Shown here one piece after another: positions 6,381 through 54,074 of a DNA stretch of 64,000 nt (the stretch's first letter is position 1; the number at the start of each line of letters is the position of its first letter). Position numbers and translations under genes: made by a program. The stretch is from Candidatus Doudnabacteria bacterium. Its GTDB lineage: Bacteria; Patescibacteriota; Doudnabacteria; UBA920. Below the pieces are notes generated by a model that searched no databases, had not been told where the DNA came from, and was given only the letters and a program-made list of their open reading frames with translations. The stretch covers positions 254,305 through 318,304 of the forward strand of contig CAVYGQ010000001.1 of the NCBI GenBank assembly GCA_963768175.1, in the 5' to 3' direction.

Positions 6381-6545
6381 GAAGAGAGGAATTGCACCTC
6401 TGACCTTGGGCTTACTTGCCCGCCCACCAAATTTGAGGCGTTTAGAAAGGTTTTTTTGGTAGCGGGAAGAGGAATTGCACCTCTGACCTTGGGCTTACTT
6501 GCCCGCCCACCAAATTTGAGGCGTTTAGAAAGGTTTTTTTGGTAG
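6381..6545 (-). repeat. tandem direct repeat of about 82 bp (two copies plus a third fused to a tRNA-like sequence) carrying a tRNA 3'-half-like segment
   Basis: agaggaattgcacctctgaccttgggcttacttgcccgcccaccaaatttgaggcgtttagaaaggtttttttggtagcgggaag repeated; the minus-strand reading contains AAGCCCAAGGTCAGAGGTGCAATTCCTCTTCCCGCTACCA. Confidence 0.8.
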
Positions 6546-6617
6546 CGGGAAGAGGAATTGCACCTCTGACCTTGGGCTTATGAGTTCCCACGCTCTAACT
6601 AACTGAGCTATCCCGCC
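6540..6617 (-). other. tRNA-like sequence (78 nt) with good acceptor, D and T stems but a non-canonical anticodon arm
   Basis: GGCGGGATAGCTCAGTTAGTTAGAGCGTGGGAACTCATAAGCCCAAGGTCAGAGGTGCAATTCCTCTTCCCGCTACCA; the anticodon stem does not pair canonically and the T-loop is TGCAATT. Confidence 0.4.
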
Positions 6618-7378: not shown

Positions 7379-7765
7379 ATGCCTCAACGCGGTTGTATCC
7401 TTGTTTTGATGCCCGGCACACTCGTGCCAGTAATGCCCCAAGTCTATGCCACCATTCGCCAGGGACCCGAAAAACATCCCGTGGAAGTCTATGTACCGCT
7501 AACAACACTAATAAAAGATAGGAAGAACTATTTCCACATCGAGGATGGGCCCCATTCTCTTTGTGCGGAACTCTATCCCAGAACCATAGCGGTACTGGAT
7601 ATGGGCAGCGGCAAGTTGTTGTGGCTGAACGAAGGTTTGCTGGCGCGCAACCCTCAAATTTGCGGGAGATGCTTTTGTGTACAACCAGTACACAAAGATG
7701 ACTGCCCCACCACAGGAAACGGCATCGACGGACCGCGGAATTCCGCGGCCGAGGTTGGGGGGTGA
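7379..7765 (+). CDS. hypothetical 128-aa Cys-containing protein
   Basis: Strong SD AAGGAGGAGG directly upstream; followed by an 18-bp perfect palindromic terminator; GC slightly raised; adjacent to the tRNA genes. Confidence 0.5.
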   Translation: MPQRGCILVLMPGTLVPVMPQVYATIRQGPEKHPVEVYVPLTTLIKDRKNYFHIEDGPHSLCAELYPRTIAVLDMGSGKLLWLNEGLLARNPQICGRCFCVQPVHKDDCPTTGNGIDGPRNSAAEVGG

Positions 7766-17318: not shown

Positions 17319-18461
17319 ATGACTGAGAATATTGTTATTTCAACCACGGAAGAAAACCGTTTAAAAAAAGAACTGGAAAAACGCACCGACTTTGAGGCTC
17401 AGCGCATAAGGCGGTATTTAAGCATGCCGGATTTGTCGCGCACCCCTGGACACCCACTTTATGAAATTGTCCAGCGAATCTTAAATTGGCCTTATTTTAA
17501 AGACTTGGATGTAATCGAAGTACCGGAAATTGTTCCTGCCAATATAAGTTTTGATTTATTTGATTTTCCGGCAGACCATCCTGCCAGAAGCAAGTCAGAT
17601 ACTTATTACGTTGATGAAAAAAATATTTTGCGCACCCATACAACCGTAATGTGGTATTATTATCTGCGGGACGAAAAAATCAAAAAACGCATGGCTGCCG
17701 ACGAACCGGTCGGCTGTTTCAGTTTTGGCAAAGTTTATCGCAAGGACGAGATAGACCGATATCATATGAATGTTTTTCATCAAATTGATGGCTGGTATCT
17801 TGCGCCGAAAGACAAAAAAGTTATTGGGATAGACATTTTAAAAGAAGCTTTGTCAAATTTTGCACAAGCTGTTTTTGGAACAGATGTCCAAGTACGCTTT
17901 AACAAAGATACGTTCCCATATACTGATCCTTCTTTGGAAATGGAAGTGAAAAAAGGCGATCAATGGTTGGAAGTAGCCGGAGCCGGTGTAGTAAAAGGAA
18001 GTGTTTTGGAAAAATTCGGCGTTGATTCTTCAAAATGGAACGGCTGGGCTTTTGGGCCGGGCATAGAACGTTTTGCGCTTATTTCGATAGACTTGCCGGA
18101 CATCCGCCTATTATGGTCAACCGACCCAAGAGTAACCAAGCAATTACATCTTGGACAAAAATTTGTGGAAGTCAGCAAATACCCGCCAATTACCCGCGAT
18201 ATATCTTTTGTTGTCGGCAGCGATTTTGTGCCCAACAACTATTTTGACCTAATCCGCGACATTGGCGGCGACCTTGTGGAGCAAGTGAAGCTTTTGGATA
18301 AGTACCAGGACGAAAAAAAGTTCGGTCCGGGAAAAGTCAGCTATACCTACCGCGTGGTCTATCGCAGTCCCGAACGGACGCTGAAAACCGATGAAGTTGA
18401 GCCCTTGCAAAACAAGCTTTACGAGCAAACCAAAGAGCAATACAACGCCCAATTACGATAA
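17319..18461 (+). CDS. pheS: phenylalanine--tRNA ligase alpha chain with a C-terminal FDX-ACB anticodon-binding domain (monomeric, mitochondrial-type architecture)
   Basis: Class II catalytic core (FPADHPARS, RTHTT, GWAFGPGIERFA), then YPPITRDISFVV ... GKVSYTYRVVYRSPERTLKTDEV, which resembles the FDX-ACB domain normally found at the PheT C-terminus. Confidence 0.8.
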   Translation: MTENIVISTTEENRLKKELEKRTDFEAQRIRRYLSMPDLSRTPGHPLYEIVQRILNWPYFKDLDVIEVPEIVPANISFDLFDFPADHPARSKSDTYYVDEKNILRTHTTVMWYYYLRDEKIKKRMAADEPVGCFSFGKVYRKDEIDRYHMNVFHQIDGWYLAPKDKKVIGIDILKEALSNFAQAVFGTDVQVRFNKDTFPYTDPSLEMEVKKGDQWLEVAGAGVVKGSVLEKFGVDSSKWNGWAFGPGIERFALISIDLPDIRLLWSTDPRVTKQLHLGQKFVEVSKYPPITRDISFVVGSDFVPNNYFDLIRDIGGDLVEQVKLLDKYQDEKKFGPGKVSYTYRVVYRSPERTLKTDEVEPLQNKLYEQTKEQYNAQLR

Positions 18462-18462
18462 C

Positions 18463-18501
18463 ACAAGGGGCATCCTTTTGCTGCAAAAGGATGCCCCTTG
18501 T
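18463..18501. repeat. Family-1 variant palindromic element (39 bp perfect hairpin) 2 nt after the pheS stop
   Basis: acaaggggcatccttttgctgcaaaaggatgccccttgt: 16-bp stem, 5-nt loop; identical (inverted) copy at 60782-60820. Confidence 0.85.
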
Positions 18502-18531
18502 TGGTAAGTAATTGTTGATAACTTTAAACCC

Positions 18532-18570
18532 AAATATCCCTCTTATTTAAGAGGGATATTTTATATTTTA
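18532..18570 (+). terminator. intrinsic terminator after pheS
   Basis: aaatatccctctta/taagagggatattt palindrome followed by a T-rich tract. Confidence 0.6.
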
Positions 18571-18682
18571 CCTCTAGATTTTTGGCTCAAATTATGCTAC
18601 AATATTAAGGTAAAATGACTACTTTAATTCATCTAAAAAAGTTGTATCATGATACCTAATTCCTGATACTTATTTTTATTTT

Positions 18683-47450: not shown

Positions 47451-47484
47451 AAAAAATTGGCGGCCGCCCGGCCGCCAATTTTCA
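47451..47484. terminator. bidirectional hairpin between map and thrS (convergent genes)
   Basis: aaaattggcggccgcccggccgccaatttt; preceded by a Family-2 repeat fragment. Confidence 0.65.
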
Positions 47485-49311
47485 CTTTTTCTTTTCAATT
47501 TCCATCTTAATCTTTTTCACAAACTTTTTCAGCGGCATAACACCCAAATCTTTGCCTTCGCGGGTCCTGACCGCGATTTTTCCGCCGGAGACGGATCCGC
47601 CTTTGGCGGATTTCGCTTCTTTTTCACCGACAATTATCTGGTATGGAATTTTTTGCATGCTGGCCTCGCGGATTTTTTTGCCTATTGATTCATCTCTGTC
47701 ATCAAGCTCAATTCTTAATTCTTGATTCATAATTCCTAATTCCTTCATAACTTTTTTAGCATAAACATTTTGCTTCCTTGAAATCGGCAAAATCTTTACC
47801 TGAACCGGTGACAACCACAAAGGCAAAGAGCCGGCGTAATGTTCAATGAGCAAACCGATAAAACGTTCAAGGGAGCCGTAAATTACGCGGTGAATGGCCA
47901 CAGGAGTCTTGCGCGATCCGTCTTGGGCAATGTATTCCAAACCAAACCGCTTGGGCTGTTGGAAATCCAACTGAATGGTCCCCGTTTGCCACTGCCGGCC
48001 GAGCGCGTCTTTCATTAAAATATCAATCTTCGGCCCGTAAAACGCGCCGTCGCCCGCTTCTATGGAATACTCTTTGCCGGATTTGTCCAATATCCGTTTT
48101 AGCGCGGCTTCGGCGTTATTCCAAGTGGCAACATCGCCCATAAATTTCTCCGGCCTGGTTCCCAAACGGTAGCGGTATTGCATTTTAAAAATCCCGTAAA
48201 ATAATTTGGTAATTTCAAATACCCTGGCGTATTCCGCTTCTATCATTTCTTCGGTAATAAAAATATGGGCGTCGTCCTGCCGAAACTCCCGCACGCGGAG
48301 CAATCCGTTTAAAGTTCCGGCCAGCTCATAACGGTGCAGCATATCGGTGTCGGAAAATCTTAGCGGGAGATCTTTGTAACTGCGCAGGCGAGAGCCAAAC
48401 ACCACCATGGCATTGGGACAGTTCATGGCCTTAATGCCGTATTCTTCGTTTTCCCCCATATTTGCCATAAACATATCGTGCCAATAGTGTTCAAAATGCC
48501 CCGAAGTCCGGAATAATTCTTTTTTATTAAGCAAAGGAGAGACAATTTCCTGATAACCGCGCTTGGCATGCTCCTTGCGCCAAAAATCTATCAGCTGATT
48601 GTACAAAATTACTCCCTTGGGCAGCCAATAAGGCATCCCGGGCGACGTGTGATGAAACATAAACAGTTCCAACTTGGGTCCCAAAACTTTATGGTCGCGC
48701 TTAGCGGCTTCTTCAAGCAATTTTAGATGCTTATCAAGTTCTTGTTTGGTCTCAAACGCGATGCCGTAAATCCGCTGCATTTGCGGGTTTTTTTGGTCGC
48801 CGCGCCAGTAAGCACCGCTAACTTTATCCAGCTTAAAGGCGTCGGTTCTTATTTGCGAAGTATTATCAACGTGCCCGCCGCGGCAGAGGTCTATAAACTT
48901 GCCGGTTTTATAAAGAGAAACTTGACTTACTGTTGGCGAAGGTGTGCCTCCAGTTGTAATCGCAAATTCTTGATCAAAAATTTTGTCAGTCCTACCATAT
49001 TTTTCTATATCTTCTATTAGCTGAACTTTAAACGGCTGGTTTTGTTTTTTAAAAAATTCTTTGGCTTCGGCCGTGGTCATCTCCATCCGTTCAAACGGCA
49101 ATTTGGATTGCGCCAACGCCCGCATTCTTTTTTCCAATACCTTAATATCTGAAGGCTGAAGGGGGCGGGGGAGCAGAAAATCATAAAAAAAGCCGTTTTC
49201 AATAACCGGCCCGACTCCCAATTGCGCCTTGGGAAATATTTCCAAAACCGCCGACGCAAGAAGGTGCGCGAGTGAGTGGCGTAAGTTATGTAATTTTTCG
49301 TTGCCATCCAT
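47482..49311 (-). CDS. thrS: threonine--tRNA ligase (no N-terminal TGS domain)
   Basis: Editing/second additional domain HSLAHLL, class II core, C-terminal anticodon-binding domain. Confidence 0.9.
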   Translation of the reverse strand: MDGNEKLHNLRHSLAHLLASAVLEIFPKAQLGVGPVIENGFFYDFLLPRPLQPSDIKVLEKRMRALAQSKLPFERMEMTTAEAKEFFKKQNQPFKVQLIEDIEKYGRTDKIFDQEFAITTGGTPSPTVSQVSLYKTGKFIDLCRGGHVDNTSQIRTDAFKLDKVSGAYWRGDQKNPQMQRIYGIAFETKQELDKHLKLLEEAAKRDHKVLGPKLELFMFHHTSPGMPYWLPKGVILYNQLIDFWRKEHAKRGYQEIVSPLLNKKELFRTSGHFEHYWHDMFMANMGENEEYGIKAMNCPNAMVVFGSRLRSYKDLPLRFSDTDMLHRYELAGTLNGLLRVREFRQDDAHIFITEEMIEAEYARVFEITKLFYGIFKMQYRYRLGTRPEKFMGDVATWNNAEAALKRILDKSGKEYSIEAGDGAFYGPKIDILMKDALGRQWQTGTIQLDFQQPKRFGLEYIAQDGSRKTPVAIHRVIYGSLERFIGLLIEHYAGSLPLWLSPVQVKILPISRKQNVYAKKVMKELGIMNQELRIELDDRDESIGKKIREASMQKIPYQIIVGEKEAKSAKGGSVSGGKIAVRTREGKDLGVMPLKKFVKKIKMEIEKKK

Positions 49312-49822
49312 AAAATTATTAGCGATATTAATAATACTAATCGCATACGAACGATACTAATTCGTGATTCGTGTCATTCGTATCCAATTCGTATATTCGT
49401 ATATTAGTGTCGGTTATAAACACAAAACCCCAGAACTTCACCATCGATACTCGATAATGAAATTCCGGGGTCTCAATGCGCCCTCCTTCGCTGAAGCTTC
49501 GGAGGACAAGAGACGTTTCCGTCCCAGAATATCCCCGATGATTTACATCGGAAATCTTTTCATCCGCTATGGCTCTAGAACCAAAACAGATTTATTGCCG
49601 TTTGTTTCAAACTCCCCGGTTGGTGGCCGGATCAACATTTGAAGAACTAAAATAACTATAACATATGCCTTAATTTGAAGCAACAACGTTTTCCACAATA
49701 AATTTAGGCTTATATAAACCAAATTTTTGGTAAAGCTTTGACAAAAAGGATTTTACGATATAGCTTATGCTTATCAGGCTCACTCGCAGTCAGGAGGTGA
49801 ACTGATAGAAAAGAGGAATTCT

Positions 49823-49927
49823 ATGTTGATCGCAGGCGCGATCGCAGTCGGTGTAATCGGGTTGGTGGCCCTATACATCACCCGCAAACGCAAAGGCGCC
49901 GACCTCAGCATGCACTTGAATGATTAG
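49823..49927 (+). CDS. 34-aa single-TM peptide (GC-rich island)
   Basis: AGAGGA SD; MLIAGAIAVGVIGLVALYITRKRKGADLSMHLND; directly followed by the SD of the next gene. Confidence 0.4.
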   Translation: MLIAGAIAVGVIGLVALYITRKRKGADLSMHLND

Positions 49928-49935
49928 GAGGGCTC

Positions 49936-50385
49936 ATGGGCATCCTGCGCAAAATCACCGCCATCGCGCGGTGGATCGGCGAGCACAACAGGGAGCCGCG
50001 CTACCCCTATTCAGGAGGGATGCCAACCTCCGAGTACCTGTGGTTCCTGTCGCTCGTGGTTGGAATTCTGTGTGTAGCAGCCATCTCTAAAGCCAGCCAG
50101 TACGGCTGGTGGGTGCCAGTACTCGTCTCGGCATTCTGGAGTGCGCTGTTTGGAGCCGGCCTATCGGTATACTTGCAGAGCCGCCGGGCGACGTGGGCAA
50201 TCATCGCCACGTACTTGCTGTGCGGGGCGATGGTAACCGGAGCCTTCCAGATTTCCCCAGCATTGAGCGCGATTATGGCCGCCCCGGTCGGGCCGCTATA
50301 CGTGCTGGCGGCGTTAACGACGAACCCGCCGGTTCAGCGAACCGGCGGTTCAACAACCAGCGGCCGCCGCAACACGGCCGCATAG
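49936..50385 (+). CDS. hypothetical 4-TM membrane protein, compositionally foreign (about 60% GC)
   Basis: TAGGAGGG SD; codon usage and GC differ sharply from flanking thrS and dnaE. Confidence 0.55.
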   Translation: MGILRKITAIARWIGEHNREPRYPYSGGMPTSEYLWFLSLVVGILCVAAISKASQYGWWVPVLVSAFWSALFGAGLSVYLQSRRATWAIIATYLLCGAMVTGAFQISPALSAIMAAPVGPLYVLAALTTNPPVQRTGGSTTSGRRNTAA

Positions 50386-50565
50386 CGGAAAGGAGGTCTA
50401 GATGAAAGCAAAACCGCCGCCGTGAGGTCCTATCCCTCCGGCGGCACGAATTTTTTACAGGGGTCTTTTTTTCTTCTGTACGCTACACGCTAACCGCTAT
50501 AAGCTTAATCCACCTCTCGACTACGCTCGGGGTGAATTAAAATTTTGTACAACAACGACAAAATT

Positions 50566-53500
50566 TTAATTCACATCCACCATATCTATCTGCGGAATCA
50601 GCCGCAATTTCGTCATCAGTTCGTTACTCATCGCCACTTGCGACTGGGTTTTTATTTTTTTTGCCCCCAAACCCGAGCCGACCGACAAATAAACCTGGAC
50701 GTTGCCCGGATGGGTTTGCAAAATATTTTTTATCTTGTTTAAAACATCTTTTTCGGCCAACGCCGACATATGCAAAACCACCTGCCGCTTTTTTTCCATT
50801 TGGCTCAGCGCCGTTGTGTATAAGTCGTCGTTCGGAAGCTCCGTAATTGTGTCCGCGATTAATTTAAACTCCTCGTCCTTGTCGGAAAGCCGGCCGGTAA
50901 CCTGCACAATTTTATCGTTTTCCAAAAACGGCAAACTTTTTTCCATGACTGTGGGGAAAACCAATACCTCTATGCTGCCGGTGAAATCTTCCAGGATAAA
51001 AAAGGCCATTGGGTCGTTCTTGCGCGTTAAAGTCCTCTTCATGCGGGAAACAATGCCCCCCATGACCACGTTTGCCCCAAGCTCGTCCAAAGTCAGGCTT
51101 TTAACCGTCCTTAAAGTAGCCAGCACTTTGCCGTAAGCATCCAGTGGATGCGCCGAAACATACATGCCCAAGTGCTCTTTTTCCCAAAGCAATTTTTCCT
51201 CTTTGGTGGCCGCCACAGATTCCCTTAATTTTAGTTTGCCGGCCTGCAAAGATTTGCCGAACAGGGAGTTTTGGCCGCTGGCTTCATTTTTAAAATGCTG
51301 CCGCACGAAGTCCAAAACTTCTTCGGTGTTATTAAGCAGCTGGCCGCGTTCGCCAAAAGCATCCAGCGCTCCGGCCTTAACCAAAGCTTCCCAGGACTTT
51401 TTGTTAAGATTTTTGGTATGAGATTTTATAAGGAAGTCTTCAAGGGATTGGAAATCGGCTTGGCCGGAAGTCGGACTTGATGAATTTTCCGATTTTCCGA
51501 TTTTCCGATTTTCCGATCTAACCTGTATAATCTTCTCTATCACATCGCTCCCCAAATTTTTAATCGCGTTTAGGCCAAAGCGGATAGTTTTGTCATCAAC
51601 TACGGTAAAATCGCCGAGCGATTCGTTTACATCCGGCGGCAAAACGGCAATACCCAAAGCCTGGCAGTCTTCCACGGCTTCGTAAATTTTTTCTTCGTCA
51701 CCGGACTCCGCGGTCATAAGCGCGGCCATAAATTCCACCGGAAAATTGGCCTTCATATAGGCGGTTTGGTAGCTGACAATGGCATACGAAGCCGAGTGCG
51801 CCTTGTTAAAACCATAAGCCGCAAACGGCTCTATCCACGTCCAAATTTGCGTAGCCTTTTCAAAGCTCCATTTGGAAGTTTCCTGGCAGCCCTGGATAAA
51901 CTTAATTTTTTGCTTGGCCATTTCCTCGGGAATTTTTTTGCCCACGGCTTTGCGGAACTTGTCCACCTCTTCCCAGGTATAGCCGGCCAAATCGTGCGCA
52001 ATAGTCAAAAGATCATCCTGGTAAACCAGCACCCCGTAAGTCCGGGAAAGGATTTTTTCCAGCGCCGGATCAAAGTATTTTATTAATTTTGGGTTGTTTT
52101 TGCGGGCAATGTACTCGGGAATAAACTGCATCGGACCAGGGCGGTAAAGCGCTATCATGGCCATAATGTCAAAAATTGACGACGGCTTGAGTTCGCGCAA
52201 ATACCGCGTCATGCCCGAAGAGCCCAGCTGGAACACGCCAAAAGTTAAACCCTCCGATAACAATTTAAAAGTTTTCGGGTCGGGATGGGGGAGATTGTAA
52301 ATATCTATCTTCACGCCGTGGCGCTGCTCCGTCATTTTTACCGCTGATTCCAGAATGCTAAGGTTGCGGATACCCAACAAATCCAGCTTGACCACGCCCA
52401 AAGCTTTGCCGTTGGCGTTAACGTCCAAAGCGTACATATCGTACTGGGTAATAATTCTTTCGCCGTCCGGCTCTTTTTGCAGCGGCATATAGTCGGTAAG
52501 GACGGTTGGGGTAATCACGATTCCGGCGGCGTGCATGGAGGCGTGGCGCGCGCAACCTTCCAGTTTTTTGGCGATTTCCAAAACGTGCCGGGTCTCCGGA
52601 TCATGGTCATAAATTTCCTTGAGCTCCGGACTTTTTCCCAAAGCCTTGTCCAAAGTCATTTGGAAACCCTGCTTGCCCAATCGGGATCATTTTGGCAATT
52701 TGGTCGCACTTGGAATAAGGCACGGCCAGCGCGCGGCCGGCATCGCGCACCGCGGCGCGCGCGGTCATGGTGCCAAAAGTAATAATTTGCGCGACTTTAT
52801 CTTTGCCGTAGTGTTCGGTAATATATTCTATGACCTCGTCACGGCGGTTGTCGGCAATATCCAAATCAATATCGGGCGGGGTGGGGCGATGCATGGTTAA
52901 AAAACGCTCAAACGGCAATTCATAATAAAGCGGGTCAACGTTGGTAATGCCCAAAATGCGCCCGACAATACTGCCGGCGGCGCTGCCCCTGGTGTTGGTA
53001 ATGGCGCCGATGTCATGCGCTCCCGCTACCACATCGGCCACCATTAAAAAATAAGTGTCAAAACCTTTTTTACAGATAATGTTCAGCTCGTAATCTATGC
53101 GCTGCTTGATGTCTTCGGGCAGGCGGCCGCTTTGGCCGTAAAGCGGCAACGCTTTTTCATAAGTAATCTTTTTAAGATATTCTTCGGATGTTTCGCCTTC
53201 CGGAATTTTAACTTTGGGAAAATATCGTCTGGTTAATTAATATTTCCAAATCGCACAGGTCGGCGACTTTTTGGGTGTTTTCCAAAGCTTCGGGCAAATC
53301 GGAAAACAGTTCCCACATCTTTTCCGGCGATTTTAAGGAAAGCTCGTAGCCGCGCATATCCAAACGGTCCTGGTCGTTTACCGTGCGTCCCGTGCCAATA
53401 CAAACCAGCACGTCCTGGGCCTCGGCGTCCTCGGGATAGATATAATGGCAGTCGGCGGTGGCGACAATGCCAAGATTATTCTTTTTGGCCAGAGCGATTA

Positions 53501-54074
53501 GTTTTTGGTTCAATTCTTCTTCCTTTGGATCTTTTGACTTGCTGTTTCTCTGAATTTCAATAAACAGCTTCTCGGGTCCAAAAATGTCCAAATATTTTCC
53601 CAAAACTTTTTGCGCCTCGGTTTCGGACTTGTTTGTTACCGCGCGCGCGATTTCCCCGCGCTGGCAACCGGACAGGCAAAGCAACCCTCCAGAGTGCTGT
53701 TTTAACAAAGCAAGGTCTATTCTCGGCTTATAATAAAACCCGCGTAAGTGGGCCTCGGTGGTGAGCTTGATTAAATTTTTATATCCGGAGTTGTTTTGGG
53801 CGAGCAAAATCAAATGATGGTAGTCCGCGTCCACCCTGCCTTCCTTTTCCTCCATGCCGCGCGGCGCTATGTAGGCTTCCAGCCCGACAATGGGTTTTAT
53901 TCCGGCTTCCCTACACTTGTTGTAAAATTCAATTGTCCCGTACATCACGCCGTGATCGGTAACGGCCAGCGCTTCCATACCGAGCTCTTTGGCGCGTTCA
54001 ATCAGCGGGTCAATTTTTGACAACCCGTCAAGCAGGGAATAATGGGAGTGGCAATGGAGATGGGTAAAGGTCAT
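50566..54074 (-). pseudogene. dnaE: DNA polymerase III alpha subunit (dnaE) interrupted by two apparent frameshifts (ORFs 53208-54074, 52607-53149(-53237), 50566-52680)
   Basis: PHP domain (HLHCHSHYSLLDG), palm/fingers, OB domain in three consecutive frames; shifts at about 53213-53224 (tattttcccaaa) and about 52650-52680 (cagggtttcc). Confidence 0.8.

Follow-up and report, generated by a model that had tools for sequence, protein, structure and literature searches.

T-box leaders are hardly documented in Patescibacteria. Every known T-box has kept the UGGN contact with the tRNA 3' end, specifier codons are followed by a purine and typically have C at the third position, Stem III is preceded by a 5'-RRRxG motif, and a truncated Stem I is found in the actinobacterial type (PMC7583486). 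In a full-text search of the literature, no paper joined T-box with the candidate phyla radiation (CPR), or riboswitch with Patescibacteria. Here, we describe the 1254-bp gap between thrS and dnaE in a 64,000-nt stretch of a Candidatus Doudnabacteria genome (assembly GCA_963768175.1, contig CAVYGQ010000001.1, positions 254,305 to 318,304), referred to below as the window (44.3% GC overall). An original prediction, made from the sequence alone, had described positions 49428-50470 as a GC-rich, foreign-looking islet encoding a 34-aa transmembrane (TM) peptide and a four-TM protein, with a possibly structured RNA upstream. The interval consists of two unrelated back-to-back units, divergently transcribed: a leader RNA of thrS on the minus strand and a membrane-protein operon on the plus strand. 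A T-box-type thrS leader beside a resident, hypervariable operon is probably the best combined explanation of the locus, and the leader is its most clearly novel element.

A structured leader RNA upstream of thrS

Using blastn, nhmmer and a covariance model (R1), the leader RNA was found between dnaE and thrS in 12 loci (L001, L002, L003, L006, L008, L009, L010, L012, L016, L074, L081 and L083), in all 12 of them upstream of thrS and on the same strand. The window copy scores 199 bits against R1. Folding of positions 49415-49660 is strand-specific, with -99.6 kcal/mol and z = -7.2 on the minus strand as compared with z = -1.8 on the plus strand. Thus, the earlier suggestion that 49428-49620 is a structured RNA was right about the structure, but the RNA is on the minus strand, spans 49416-49653 and belongs to thrS. 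RNAalifold showed compensatory change in 29 of 60 pairs. Among the 12 homologues, 96.8% of cells are paired (82.3% in shuffles) and 27 pairs carry compensatory double changes, in an alignment that was fitted to the model and is biased towards that structure; none of 500 shuffles was as good, and slid controls reached at most 56% paired. The predicted parts of the leader are as follows.

49416-49653, minus strand: T-box-type thrS leader, whole element, from strand-specific folding, covariance model and covariation
49655-49683, minus strand: leader promoter, -35 TTGCTT (49678-49683), 17 nt, extended -10 TGTTATAGT (49655-49663); near-invariant columns in 10 relatives
49606-49643, minus strand: ultrashort Stem I (~38 nt) with a kink-turn (K-turn)-like UGAU/GGAG and a terminal loop with the specifier ACC (49624-49622)
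49562-49591, minus strand: second hairpin with the conserved loop GGUUCUAGAG, absent in L074
49531-49561, minus strand: purine string GAAAAG, then the variable Stem III
49465-49527, minus strand: antiterminator, helix A1 CUGGG (49523-49527) with CCCGG (49465-49469), helix A2 GUCUC (49510-49514) with GAGAC (49470-49474)
49515-49522, minus strand: antiterminator bulge, the invariant 8-nt ACGGAAAC; a hairpin is inserted at 49482-49505
49418-49472, minus strand: terminator, a 22-bp hairpin followed by the U-run UUUUGUGUUU; its 5' arm holds the 3' strands of A1 and A2

The specifier loop presents the Thr codon ACC followed by A in 12 of 12 homologues, and all four pairs of its inner stem show compensatory change. 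The same is true of all ten pairs of Stem III, which is preceded by AAAAG in 11 of 12 loci (CAAAG in L001) and followed by AA in most, or by AUAUU in the window and L081. Helix A1 (CUGGG/CCCRG) and the first five base pairs of A2 (GUCUY/RAGAC) can form in all 12 homologues, and compensatory changes are seen at the third, fourth and fifth positions of A2. Since the 3' strands of the antiterminator are the 5' arm of the terminator, the two folds are mutually exclusive. The minimum free energy structure of the window RNA contains the antiterminator when the terminator 3' arm is left out (-41.9 kcal/mol) and the terminator at full length (-73.3 kcal/mol). A third possible fold, GGGACG-GAAA-CGUCUU, can sequester 5' strands of the leader.

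Two other descriptions of the RNA were tried and rejected. An alternative antiterminator register with A1 = AGA/UCU and UGGG in the bulge fails because AUAUU in the window and L081 cannot pair. A leader-peptide attenuator of the thr type is ruled out, as the only open reading frame (ORF) across the RNA is not Thr-rich and its frame is not conserved.

Comparison of the leader with T-boxes

R1 also matches the RNA directly upstream of thrS in two other Patescibacteria loci, L004 (45 bits) and L026 (31 bits), which the Rfam T-box model scores at E = 1e-4 and E = 7e-11, respectively (28 and 53 bits, under the 93-bit gathering threshold). In their alignments to Rfam, 72-76 Stem I positions from the distal part are deleted, the canonical GGGUGGAACC is present, and the bulge reads UGGAACC. 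These RNAs share with the window leader the 5' domain, consisting of UGAU...GGAG and the specifier hairpin. The hairpin aligns to the base of the Rfam Stem I, and UGAU...GGAG falls at positions aligned by Rfam to the K-turn in L004 and L026, a correspondence of alignment position only.

Like T-boxes (RF00230), especially those of actinobacterial ileS, which it resembles in its truncated Stem I (PMC7583486), the element is the leader of an aminoacyl-tRNA synthetase gene with a putative K-turn-like base and a cognate specifier. It also has a purine string and Stem III, the GAAAAG fitting the RRRxG motif (PMC7583486), an A1-bulge-A2 antiterminator sharing strands with an intrinsic terminator, and homology to the RNAs upstream of thrS in L004 and L026, both scored as T-boxes by Rfam. 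In contrast to T-boxes, its specifier stands in a terminal hairpin loop without a distal platform for the tRNA elbow, no Stem IIA/B or F-box pseudoknot is recognisable, and the bulge is the 8-nt ACGGAAAC rather than a 7-nt UGGN-ACC. The third fold, the failure of the Rfam model to detect the leader, and the ~115 nt with ACGAAT repeats between terminator and start codon are further differences. We have filed the leader as a predicted element that works like a T-box and derives evolutionarily from one, not as a canonical member of the class.

In the proposed mechanism, uncharged tRNA-Thr(GGU) would pair with ACC and stabilise the antiterminator, so that RNA polymerase would read through into thrS (transcription attenuation). 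The GGA of the bulge ACGGAAAC could still pair with U73-C74-C75 of the tRNA. A bolder reading, possible but less likely than not, is that the leader represents an undescribed Doudnabacteria T-box class that retains the specifier, Stem III and the switch between antiterminator and terminator, but in which UGGN docking, so far seen in every T-box, is replaced by ACGGAAAC; this would imply either a different contact with the tRNA 3' end or a different signal.

Besides the fitted alignment, several observations weigh against this assignment. The T-box model gave no match at E<=10 on window positions 49400-49710, where, as at E<=1 on 48800-51200, the only Rfam match was a chance one to AgrB (15 bits); the Rfam/Infernal scan proposed along with the original prediction thus identified no family for this RNA. 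Both the UGGN contact that defines the class and the distal Stem I platform are absent, the former being replaced by the invariant ACGGAAAC. No tRNA-Thr gene was found in the window or in 26 loci for a comparison of discriminator pairing. In four of the 12 loci (L003, L009, L012 and L016), an extra ORF separates the terminator from thrS, which makes the coupling of leader and thrS indirect in those genomes. The missing UGGN bulge, the extra ORFs, the lack of an Rfam match, and the RNA's own conserved promoter and strong terminator would all suit an RNA that senses no tRNA, either a stand-alone small RNA (sRNA) or a protein-binding leader (for ThrRS, for example) with retained T-box-like helices. 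We consider this improbable, since the RNA is always upstream of thrS on the same strand, has mutually exclusive antiterminator and terminator folds, and is homologous to bona fide T-box leaders of thrS. Moreover, the loop shows the codon ACC and not the anticodon in 12 of 12 loci, so that it does not mimic the anticodon arm of tRNA-Thr. If the T-box-type leader still senses tRNA, the rules for reading aminoacylation are broadened; otherwise, a riboswitch scaffold has been repurposed here. Rfam-based annotation misses it under either reading.

An operon for small membrane proteins

The plus-strand unit is predicted to be a single mRNA (49738-50456), transcribed from a TTGACA promoter and carrying strong Shine-Dalgarno (SD) sequences.

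49738-50456, plus strand: whole operon, with promoter, 5' stem-loop, ORF34, ORF149, mini-ORF and bidirectional terminator
49738-49766, plus strand: predicted promoter read from the sequence, -35 TTGACA (49738-49743), 17-nt spacer, -10 TAGCTT (49761-49766)
49771-49808, plus strand: stem-loop UUAUCAG...CUGAUAG of the 5' untranslated region (UTR), just ahead of the first SD; from comparison of three sequences
49823-49927, plus strand: ORF34, MLIAGAIAVGVIGLVALYITRKRKGADLSMHLND, a one-TM peptide with a basic tail; SD AGAGGA (49812-49817)
49936-50385, plus strand: ORF149, a four-TM protein; SD AGGAGG (49926-49931)
50389-50425, plus strand: SD AAAGGAGG and the mini-ORF MKAKPPP* (50402-50425), its UGA in the 5' arm of the terminator
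50414-50456, both strands: bidirectional intrinsic terminator GCCGCCG-U-GAGG / CCUC-CGGCGGC, with an A-tract before and a T-tract after

A TTGACA box followed by TAnnnT at 17-18 nt is also present in L081, L082, L002, L010, L001 and L085, and in L083, TTGACA has either TAATTT 17 nt or GATAAT 15 nt behind it. The islet promoter was not listed by a consensus promoter scan because of its weak -10. In the 5'-UTR stem-loop, the outer 6 bp are invariant and three inner pairs are compensatory, a weak support that comes from only three sequences (window, L081 and L082). The terminator is 77-100% conserved in L081, L082, L083 and L086 despite diverging coding DNA, and probably also ends the convergent dnaE transcript.

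Hydropathy and AlphaFold2 (AF2) secondary structure gave one TM helix for ORF34 and four for ORF149. Together with the 8-nt gap between the two genes and the AGGAGG placed 4 nt ahead of the ORF149 ATG, this bears out the original prediction of a tightly coupled pair encoding a 34-aa TM peptide and a four-TM protein. ORF149 has an N-terminal amphipathic helix with the motif W[IV][DG][ED]HN[RK]EP, four TM helices and a YLQSRRA loop, and the motifs conserved in its family are W[IV][DG][ED]HN[RK]EP and Y[LF][QD][SN]RRA. By the positive-inside rule, its N-terminus, QSRRA loop and C-terminus would be cytoplasmic (N-in, C-in), and we infer an N-out, C-in topology for ORF34. The AF2 model of ORF149 is so weak that matches from a fold search would be meaningless.

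An exhaustive phmmer search of 1.84 billion representative proteins returned three relatives of ORF149 (E = 1e-16, 3e-13 and 5e-5). A fourth listed match, the 445-aa repeat protein P0004, is not a relative, and a profile search added nothing to the phmmer relatives. With a truncated allele in L086, the family comprises four database members plus one, or five among ~15 billion proteins. The reading frame is intact in five diverged alleles with a dN/dS of 0.3-0.6, and frame retention, the phmmer E-value of 1e-16, the motifs and dN/dS together mark ORF149, and with it the membrane pair, as coding. Searches of ORF149, its relatives and positional analogues against Pfam, PHROGs, PADLOC, NCBIfam and PDB profiles gave only sub-threshold TM noise, with no PADLOC defence family at E<=1 for four proteins. 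By these profiles, ORF149 matches no known family, and its function can only be predicted.

The slot of the first gene is occupied by a 35-aa peptide in L081, a 36-aa peptide in L082 and a non-homologous 78-aa ORF with two TM helices in L083. One-TM peptides with basic tails akin to ORF34 are encoded in L002, L006, L009 and L085.

At the 3' end of the operon, five cassettes have a mini-ORF of 7-8 codons, with an SD, an ATG and a Pro-Pro-UGA end within the terminator's 5' arm (MKAKPPP in the window, MKKKLPP in L082, MITRAPP in L086, MTSNKPP in L006 and MSSTIKPP in L085). Two of the seven cassettes, L081 and L083, retain the nucleotides of this site without the ATG. As the stop codon lies inside the terminator arm, a terminating ribosome would mask the hairpin. 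With its SD, its Pro-Pro-UGA end and the position of its stop, the mini-ORF resembles systems of Pro-Pro-stop stalling or leader-peptide attenuation, but it differs from them in standing at the 3' end of the operon with no same-strand gene downstream. Its Lys and Pro codons may be no more than a reflection of the A-tract and the GC-rich stem in the terminator shared with the convergent dnaE.

The operon is resident at a fixed site

The ORF149 family is found between the thrS riboswitch and the dnaE-stop hairpin in three independent assemblies, L081 (a Logan contig), L083 and L086 (both JGI contigs). L082 is too short to show flanks; it starts with the motif GGCTTTATTTAAG, which adjoins the riboswitch promoter elsewhere, and this copy is probably at the same dnaE/thrS site. 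The recurrence of the same junctions in independent assemblies means that the contig is not chimeric. The flanks of the islet contain only short, weak att-like repeat pairs, with no direct repeats, integrase or other mobility genes, or tRNA. No islet relatives were found in phage and plasmid collections (tblastn) or in IMG/VR (family-profile scan). In the JGI metagenomes, a protein-profile scan was empty and a terminator-pattern scan gave no matches, which carries little weight as the collection lacks the L083 contig.

In other Doudnabacteria, the site is empty (L008 and L016) or holds other small ORFs in the same orientation (L001, L002, L006, L009, L010, L074 and L085, which are more distant). 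Strong SDs, a promoter of the TTGACA type and a locally higher GC content are common to these positional analogues. Their products are one-TM peptides, 30-51 aa long and basic in the tail (several with GRxGRxW), and in some cases also proteins with two to four TM helices. Comparison of the ORF149 family with the analogues of L074 and L002 gave hhalign probabilities <1%, so no homology can be claimed. The presence of unrelated small-TM ORFs at one site in distant Doudnabacteria makes this site a variable slot across the clade.

A sharp change in composition at this locus, as originally described, is real. In 100-nt windows, GC is 57-66% across about 49780-50450, and no 400-nt window of the 64 kb exceeds the value of 0.62 reached here (mean 0.443, sd 0.05; ~3.6 sd above). 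GC at the third codon position (GC3) is 0.76 in ORF149 and 0.74 in ORF34, as compared with 0.506±0.067 (maximum 0.62) in the 37 window ORFs of >=200 aa taken as the host reference. Much of the excess comes from the third position; GC at the second position is also raised (0.57 versus about 0.34 in host ORFs), owing to an amino-acid composition rich in Ala, Gly, Pro and Trp. Four of the 12 plus-strand copies of AGGAGG in the window fall within 49792-50396, and none of the 50 long window ORFs has a strong SD. The upstream part, 49428-49620, is near background (42-51% versus 44%) and is owned by thrS, so that the GC-rich unit begins at ~49780 and not at 49428 as first delimited.

GC-richness accompanies the family at this locus: in L081, the homologous ORF157 has a GC3 of 0.65 as compared with 0.51 in dnaE, and the L082 ORF has 61% GC versus 34% in its flank. 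The original prediction was to be refuted by relatives carrying these genes at this locus with a host-like composition; the genes are there in relatives, yet with a composition that is again GC-rich. A foreign islet, in the sense of a recent acquisition or a chimeric contig, is contradicted by the occurrence of the family at this site in L081, L083 and L086, and seemingly in L082, and by the lack of mobility genes and of phage or plasmid relatives. As judged from this distribution, the islet is an old, resident operon at a fixed site, neither a recent import nor a chimera. An abrupt anomaly of GC, codon usage and SD in a CPR genome can hence be the sign of a hypervariable locus that recombines and has long been resident, and not of newly imported DNA, which is relevant to screens for horizontal gene transfer and to quality checks of metagenome-assembled genomes (MAGs).

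Only two other real-looking ORFs with an AGGAGG SD were seen in the window, at 7379 (plus strand, 128 aa) and 39337 (minus strand, 101 aa). Both are small, with 53% and 56% GC and GC3 of 0.56 and 0.64, respectively, and might represent additional accessory genes in the manner of the islet.

Hypervariability and possible function of the operon

When the window is compared with L081, DnaE shows 87% identity but the ORF149 protein only 38-40%. At the nucleotide level, the flanks share ~80% identity, the cassette promoter with its 5' UTR 67-70%, the terminator 77% and the cassette coding DNA 27-55%. Over the riboswitch and its promoter, only three of ~190 positions distinguish L081 from L083, and their islet terminators are identical. 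Their cassette promoters, 5' UTRs and first genes (35-aa one-TM versus 78-aa two-TM) are non-homologous, and the second genes share 58% identity (dS 0.54, dN/dS 0.54) with the first ~90 nt almost identical. By these comparisons, close strains differ in islet gene content, and coding DNA turns over far faster than promoter, terminator and flanks. Synonymous divergence far above that of the flank cannot come from selection at the protein level; it points to recombinational import of old divergent alleles or to local hypermutation.

We propose that divergent alleles would be swapped by homologous recombination through conserved handles, namely the region of the leader promoter, the 5'-most ~90 nt of ORF149 and the terminator. 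High GC would then be a by-product of recombination-associated GC bias and of the Ala/Gly/Pro/Trp-rich composition rather than the trace of a GC-rich donor. The peptide and its multi-TM partner might cooperate as a membrane module for strain-specific conflict or recognition, whose allele diversity would be maintained by frequency-dependent selection. The structural and evolutionary description of the operon can be held with high confidence. That it is a constitutively expressed membrane module, made up of a peptide and in some cases a multi-TM partner, diversified by frequency-dependent selection and exchanged via the handles, is a possible but doubtful reading of it. Among known systems, strain-variable genomic islets are similar in being fixed between core genes, with variable content or alleles, atypical composition and envelope-associated proteins. 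The present islet differs from them in measuring only ~0.7 kb, in being a single operon in a CPR genome of ~0.95 Mb, and in conserving its own promoter and terminator while the cargo changes.

Several points count against this proposal. Allele and flank trees agree, with L081 and L083 as the closest pair in each, which leaves room for hypermutation or relaxed constraint, and the flank that serves for comparison is a constrained RNA in its own right. For ORF149, the AF2 model from a four-sequence alignment has low confidence (a predicted local distance difference test score, pLDDT, of 56.5 and a predicted template modelling score, pTM, of 0.33), and the function given to the islet is in its entirety a prediction. 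L006 and L085 encode a one-TM peptide but no multi-TM partner, which argues against an obligate pair of toxin and protein immunity. The roles originally suggested for the pair (toxin/immunity, holin-like or abortive infection) found no match in PADLOC, PHROGs, Pfam, NCBIfam or the PDB, and any of them would be conjectural.

The congruent trees would also fit ordinary accessory small membrane proteins, such as complex subunits or modulators, that evolve fast from weak constraint on their TM segments, with no conflict or recombination. A dN/dS of 0.3-0.6, below 1, conserved residues that face the cytoplasm (in the N-terminal helix and the YLQSRRA loop) and the variable gene content of relatives agree with this as well. 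It is nevertheless unlikely: relaxed constraint explains neither a dS of 0.54 beside a flank with ~1.5% differences nor the non-homologous replacement of the first gene between near-identical strains, and the raised GC3 is left unexplained. A recent foreign import, brought by a phage, plasmid or GC-rich donor and inserted between thrS and dnaE, would fit the strong outliers in GC, GC3 and SD usage and the orphan nature of the proteins. This origin is very unlikely given the three independent assemblies with the family at the same site (with L082 probably a further case), among which L081 has a DnaE as distant as 87% identity. Flanking direct repeats, an integrase and a tRNA are lacking, no relative outside the clade occurs in phages, plasmids, IMG/VR or the 15 billion proteins, and the promoter and terminator are common to positional analogues in other Doudnabacteria.

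Type I toxins such as PepA1/SprA1, Ldr, Fst and TxpA are 30-40 aa long, have a single TM helix and a tail that is basic or aromatic, and are made from structured mRNAs. ORF34 matches this design in size (<60 aa), TM segment and tail, the 5' UTR is structured, and the bidirectional terminator is common to a convergent transcript. Accordingly built, a type I toxin-antitoxin-like system would use ORF34 as a membrane-depolarising toxin under control of an antisense or overlapping RNA, with ORF149 as an accessory; in one variant, the convergent dnaE 3' end could serve as the antitoxin RNA at the shared terminator. Unlike in type I systems, the peptide has a co-translated four-TM partner, the ribosome-binding site of its first SD is not sequestered by the 5' hairpin, and no antitoxin sRNA or convincing antisense promoter was found, Rfam being empty. 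With a promoter and SDs so strong that they suggest constitutive expression, and with an overlap with the dnaE transcript confined to the terminator, we consider such a system quite unlikely. The small multi-TM proteins with hydrophilic tails recall small holins and CidA/LrgA-like proteins, and could thus be a prophage remnant of the holin/antiholin or superinfection-exclusion kind. They differ from these proteins in having no Pfam, PHROG or NCBIfam match, lysin partner or phage context. The neighbours are thrS and dnaE with no lysin or other phage gene, no PHROG or PADLOC match was significant, and no phage or IMG/VR relative was found, which makes a remnant of this kind extremely improbable. 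The conflict or recognition module remains the reading we prefer for a very rare family of small membrane proteins at a fixed, strain-variable site. As such, the islet offers a possible way into the study of conflict or recognition between strains of episymbiotic, as yet unculturable bacteria.

Neighbouring genes and other features

ThrS and DnaE are closest to Candidatus Doudnabacteria and other Patescibacteria MAGs (ThrS <=76% identity).

47482-49311, minus strand: thrS, downstream of the leader RNA and starting at 49311; Pfam tRNA-synt_2b, HGTP_anticodon and tRNA_SAD
50566-54074, minus strand: dnaE, read as three ORFs; flanks the islet and is convergent with its operon
50532-50574, both strands: perfect inverted repeat of 17 bp (9-nt loop) across the dnaE stop codon; kept in L081 and L083

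The dnaE ORFs (53208-54074, 52607-53149 and 50566-52680, minus strand) include one overlapping and one gapped pair, and this overlap and gap (52600-53260) imply two frameshifts. In L002, dnaE is one ORF of 1152 aa. Indel errors of long-read assembly are a likelier cause of the breaks than a broken essential gene.

Two elements were originally taken to bound the islet. One, a hairpin beside a repeat-family fragment, is present as the inverted repeat across the dnaE stop codon. The other, the leader motif at 49365-49400, exists as well, in the form of consecutive ACGAAT repeats that separate the riboswitch terminator from the start codon of thrS. The fragment itself (50505-50531) belongs to a dispersed CPR-type repeat (CTCGACTACGCTCGGGGTGAA). 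The ~115 nt between the leader terminator and the thrS ATG hold five to six ACGAAT-type repeats (49345-49402, minus strand), including ATACGAAT three times. Similar ACGAAT-like repeats are present in L002, L006 and L012, and TACTAAA repeats in L003 and L009.

Just upstream of the riboswitch promoter, a DnaA-box-like TTTTCCACA (49689-49697, plus strand) is followed by the conserved GGCTTATWTAWR. The site reads TGTGGA[AC]AA in nine of ten aligned relatives and is inverted in L074; in the window it is single and unenriched. Small GIY-YIG-type ORFs are located in or beside the thrS riboswitch in L003 (5119-5376) and L085 (1805-2041, with a PF01541 match), the one in L003 lying inside the Stem III loop and splitting the RNA by ~270 nt.

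Elsewhere in the window, an R1 match at 18449-18616 (minus strand, 24.5 bits) is spurious; it is the strong, bidirectional pheS-gyrB terminator hairpin (AAGGGGCATCCTTTTGC...GCAAAAGGATGCCCCTT) and not a second riboswitch. ARAGORN reported a tRNA-like gene with an undetermined two-base anticodon (ca) at 6540-6617 (minus strand), between tRNA-Asp and tRNA-Met.

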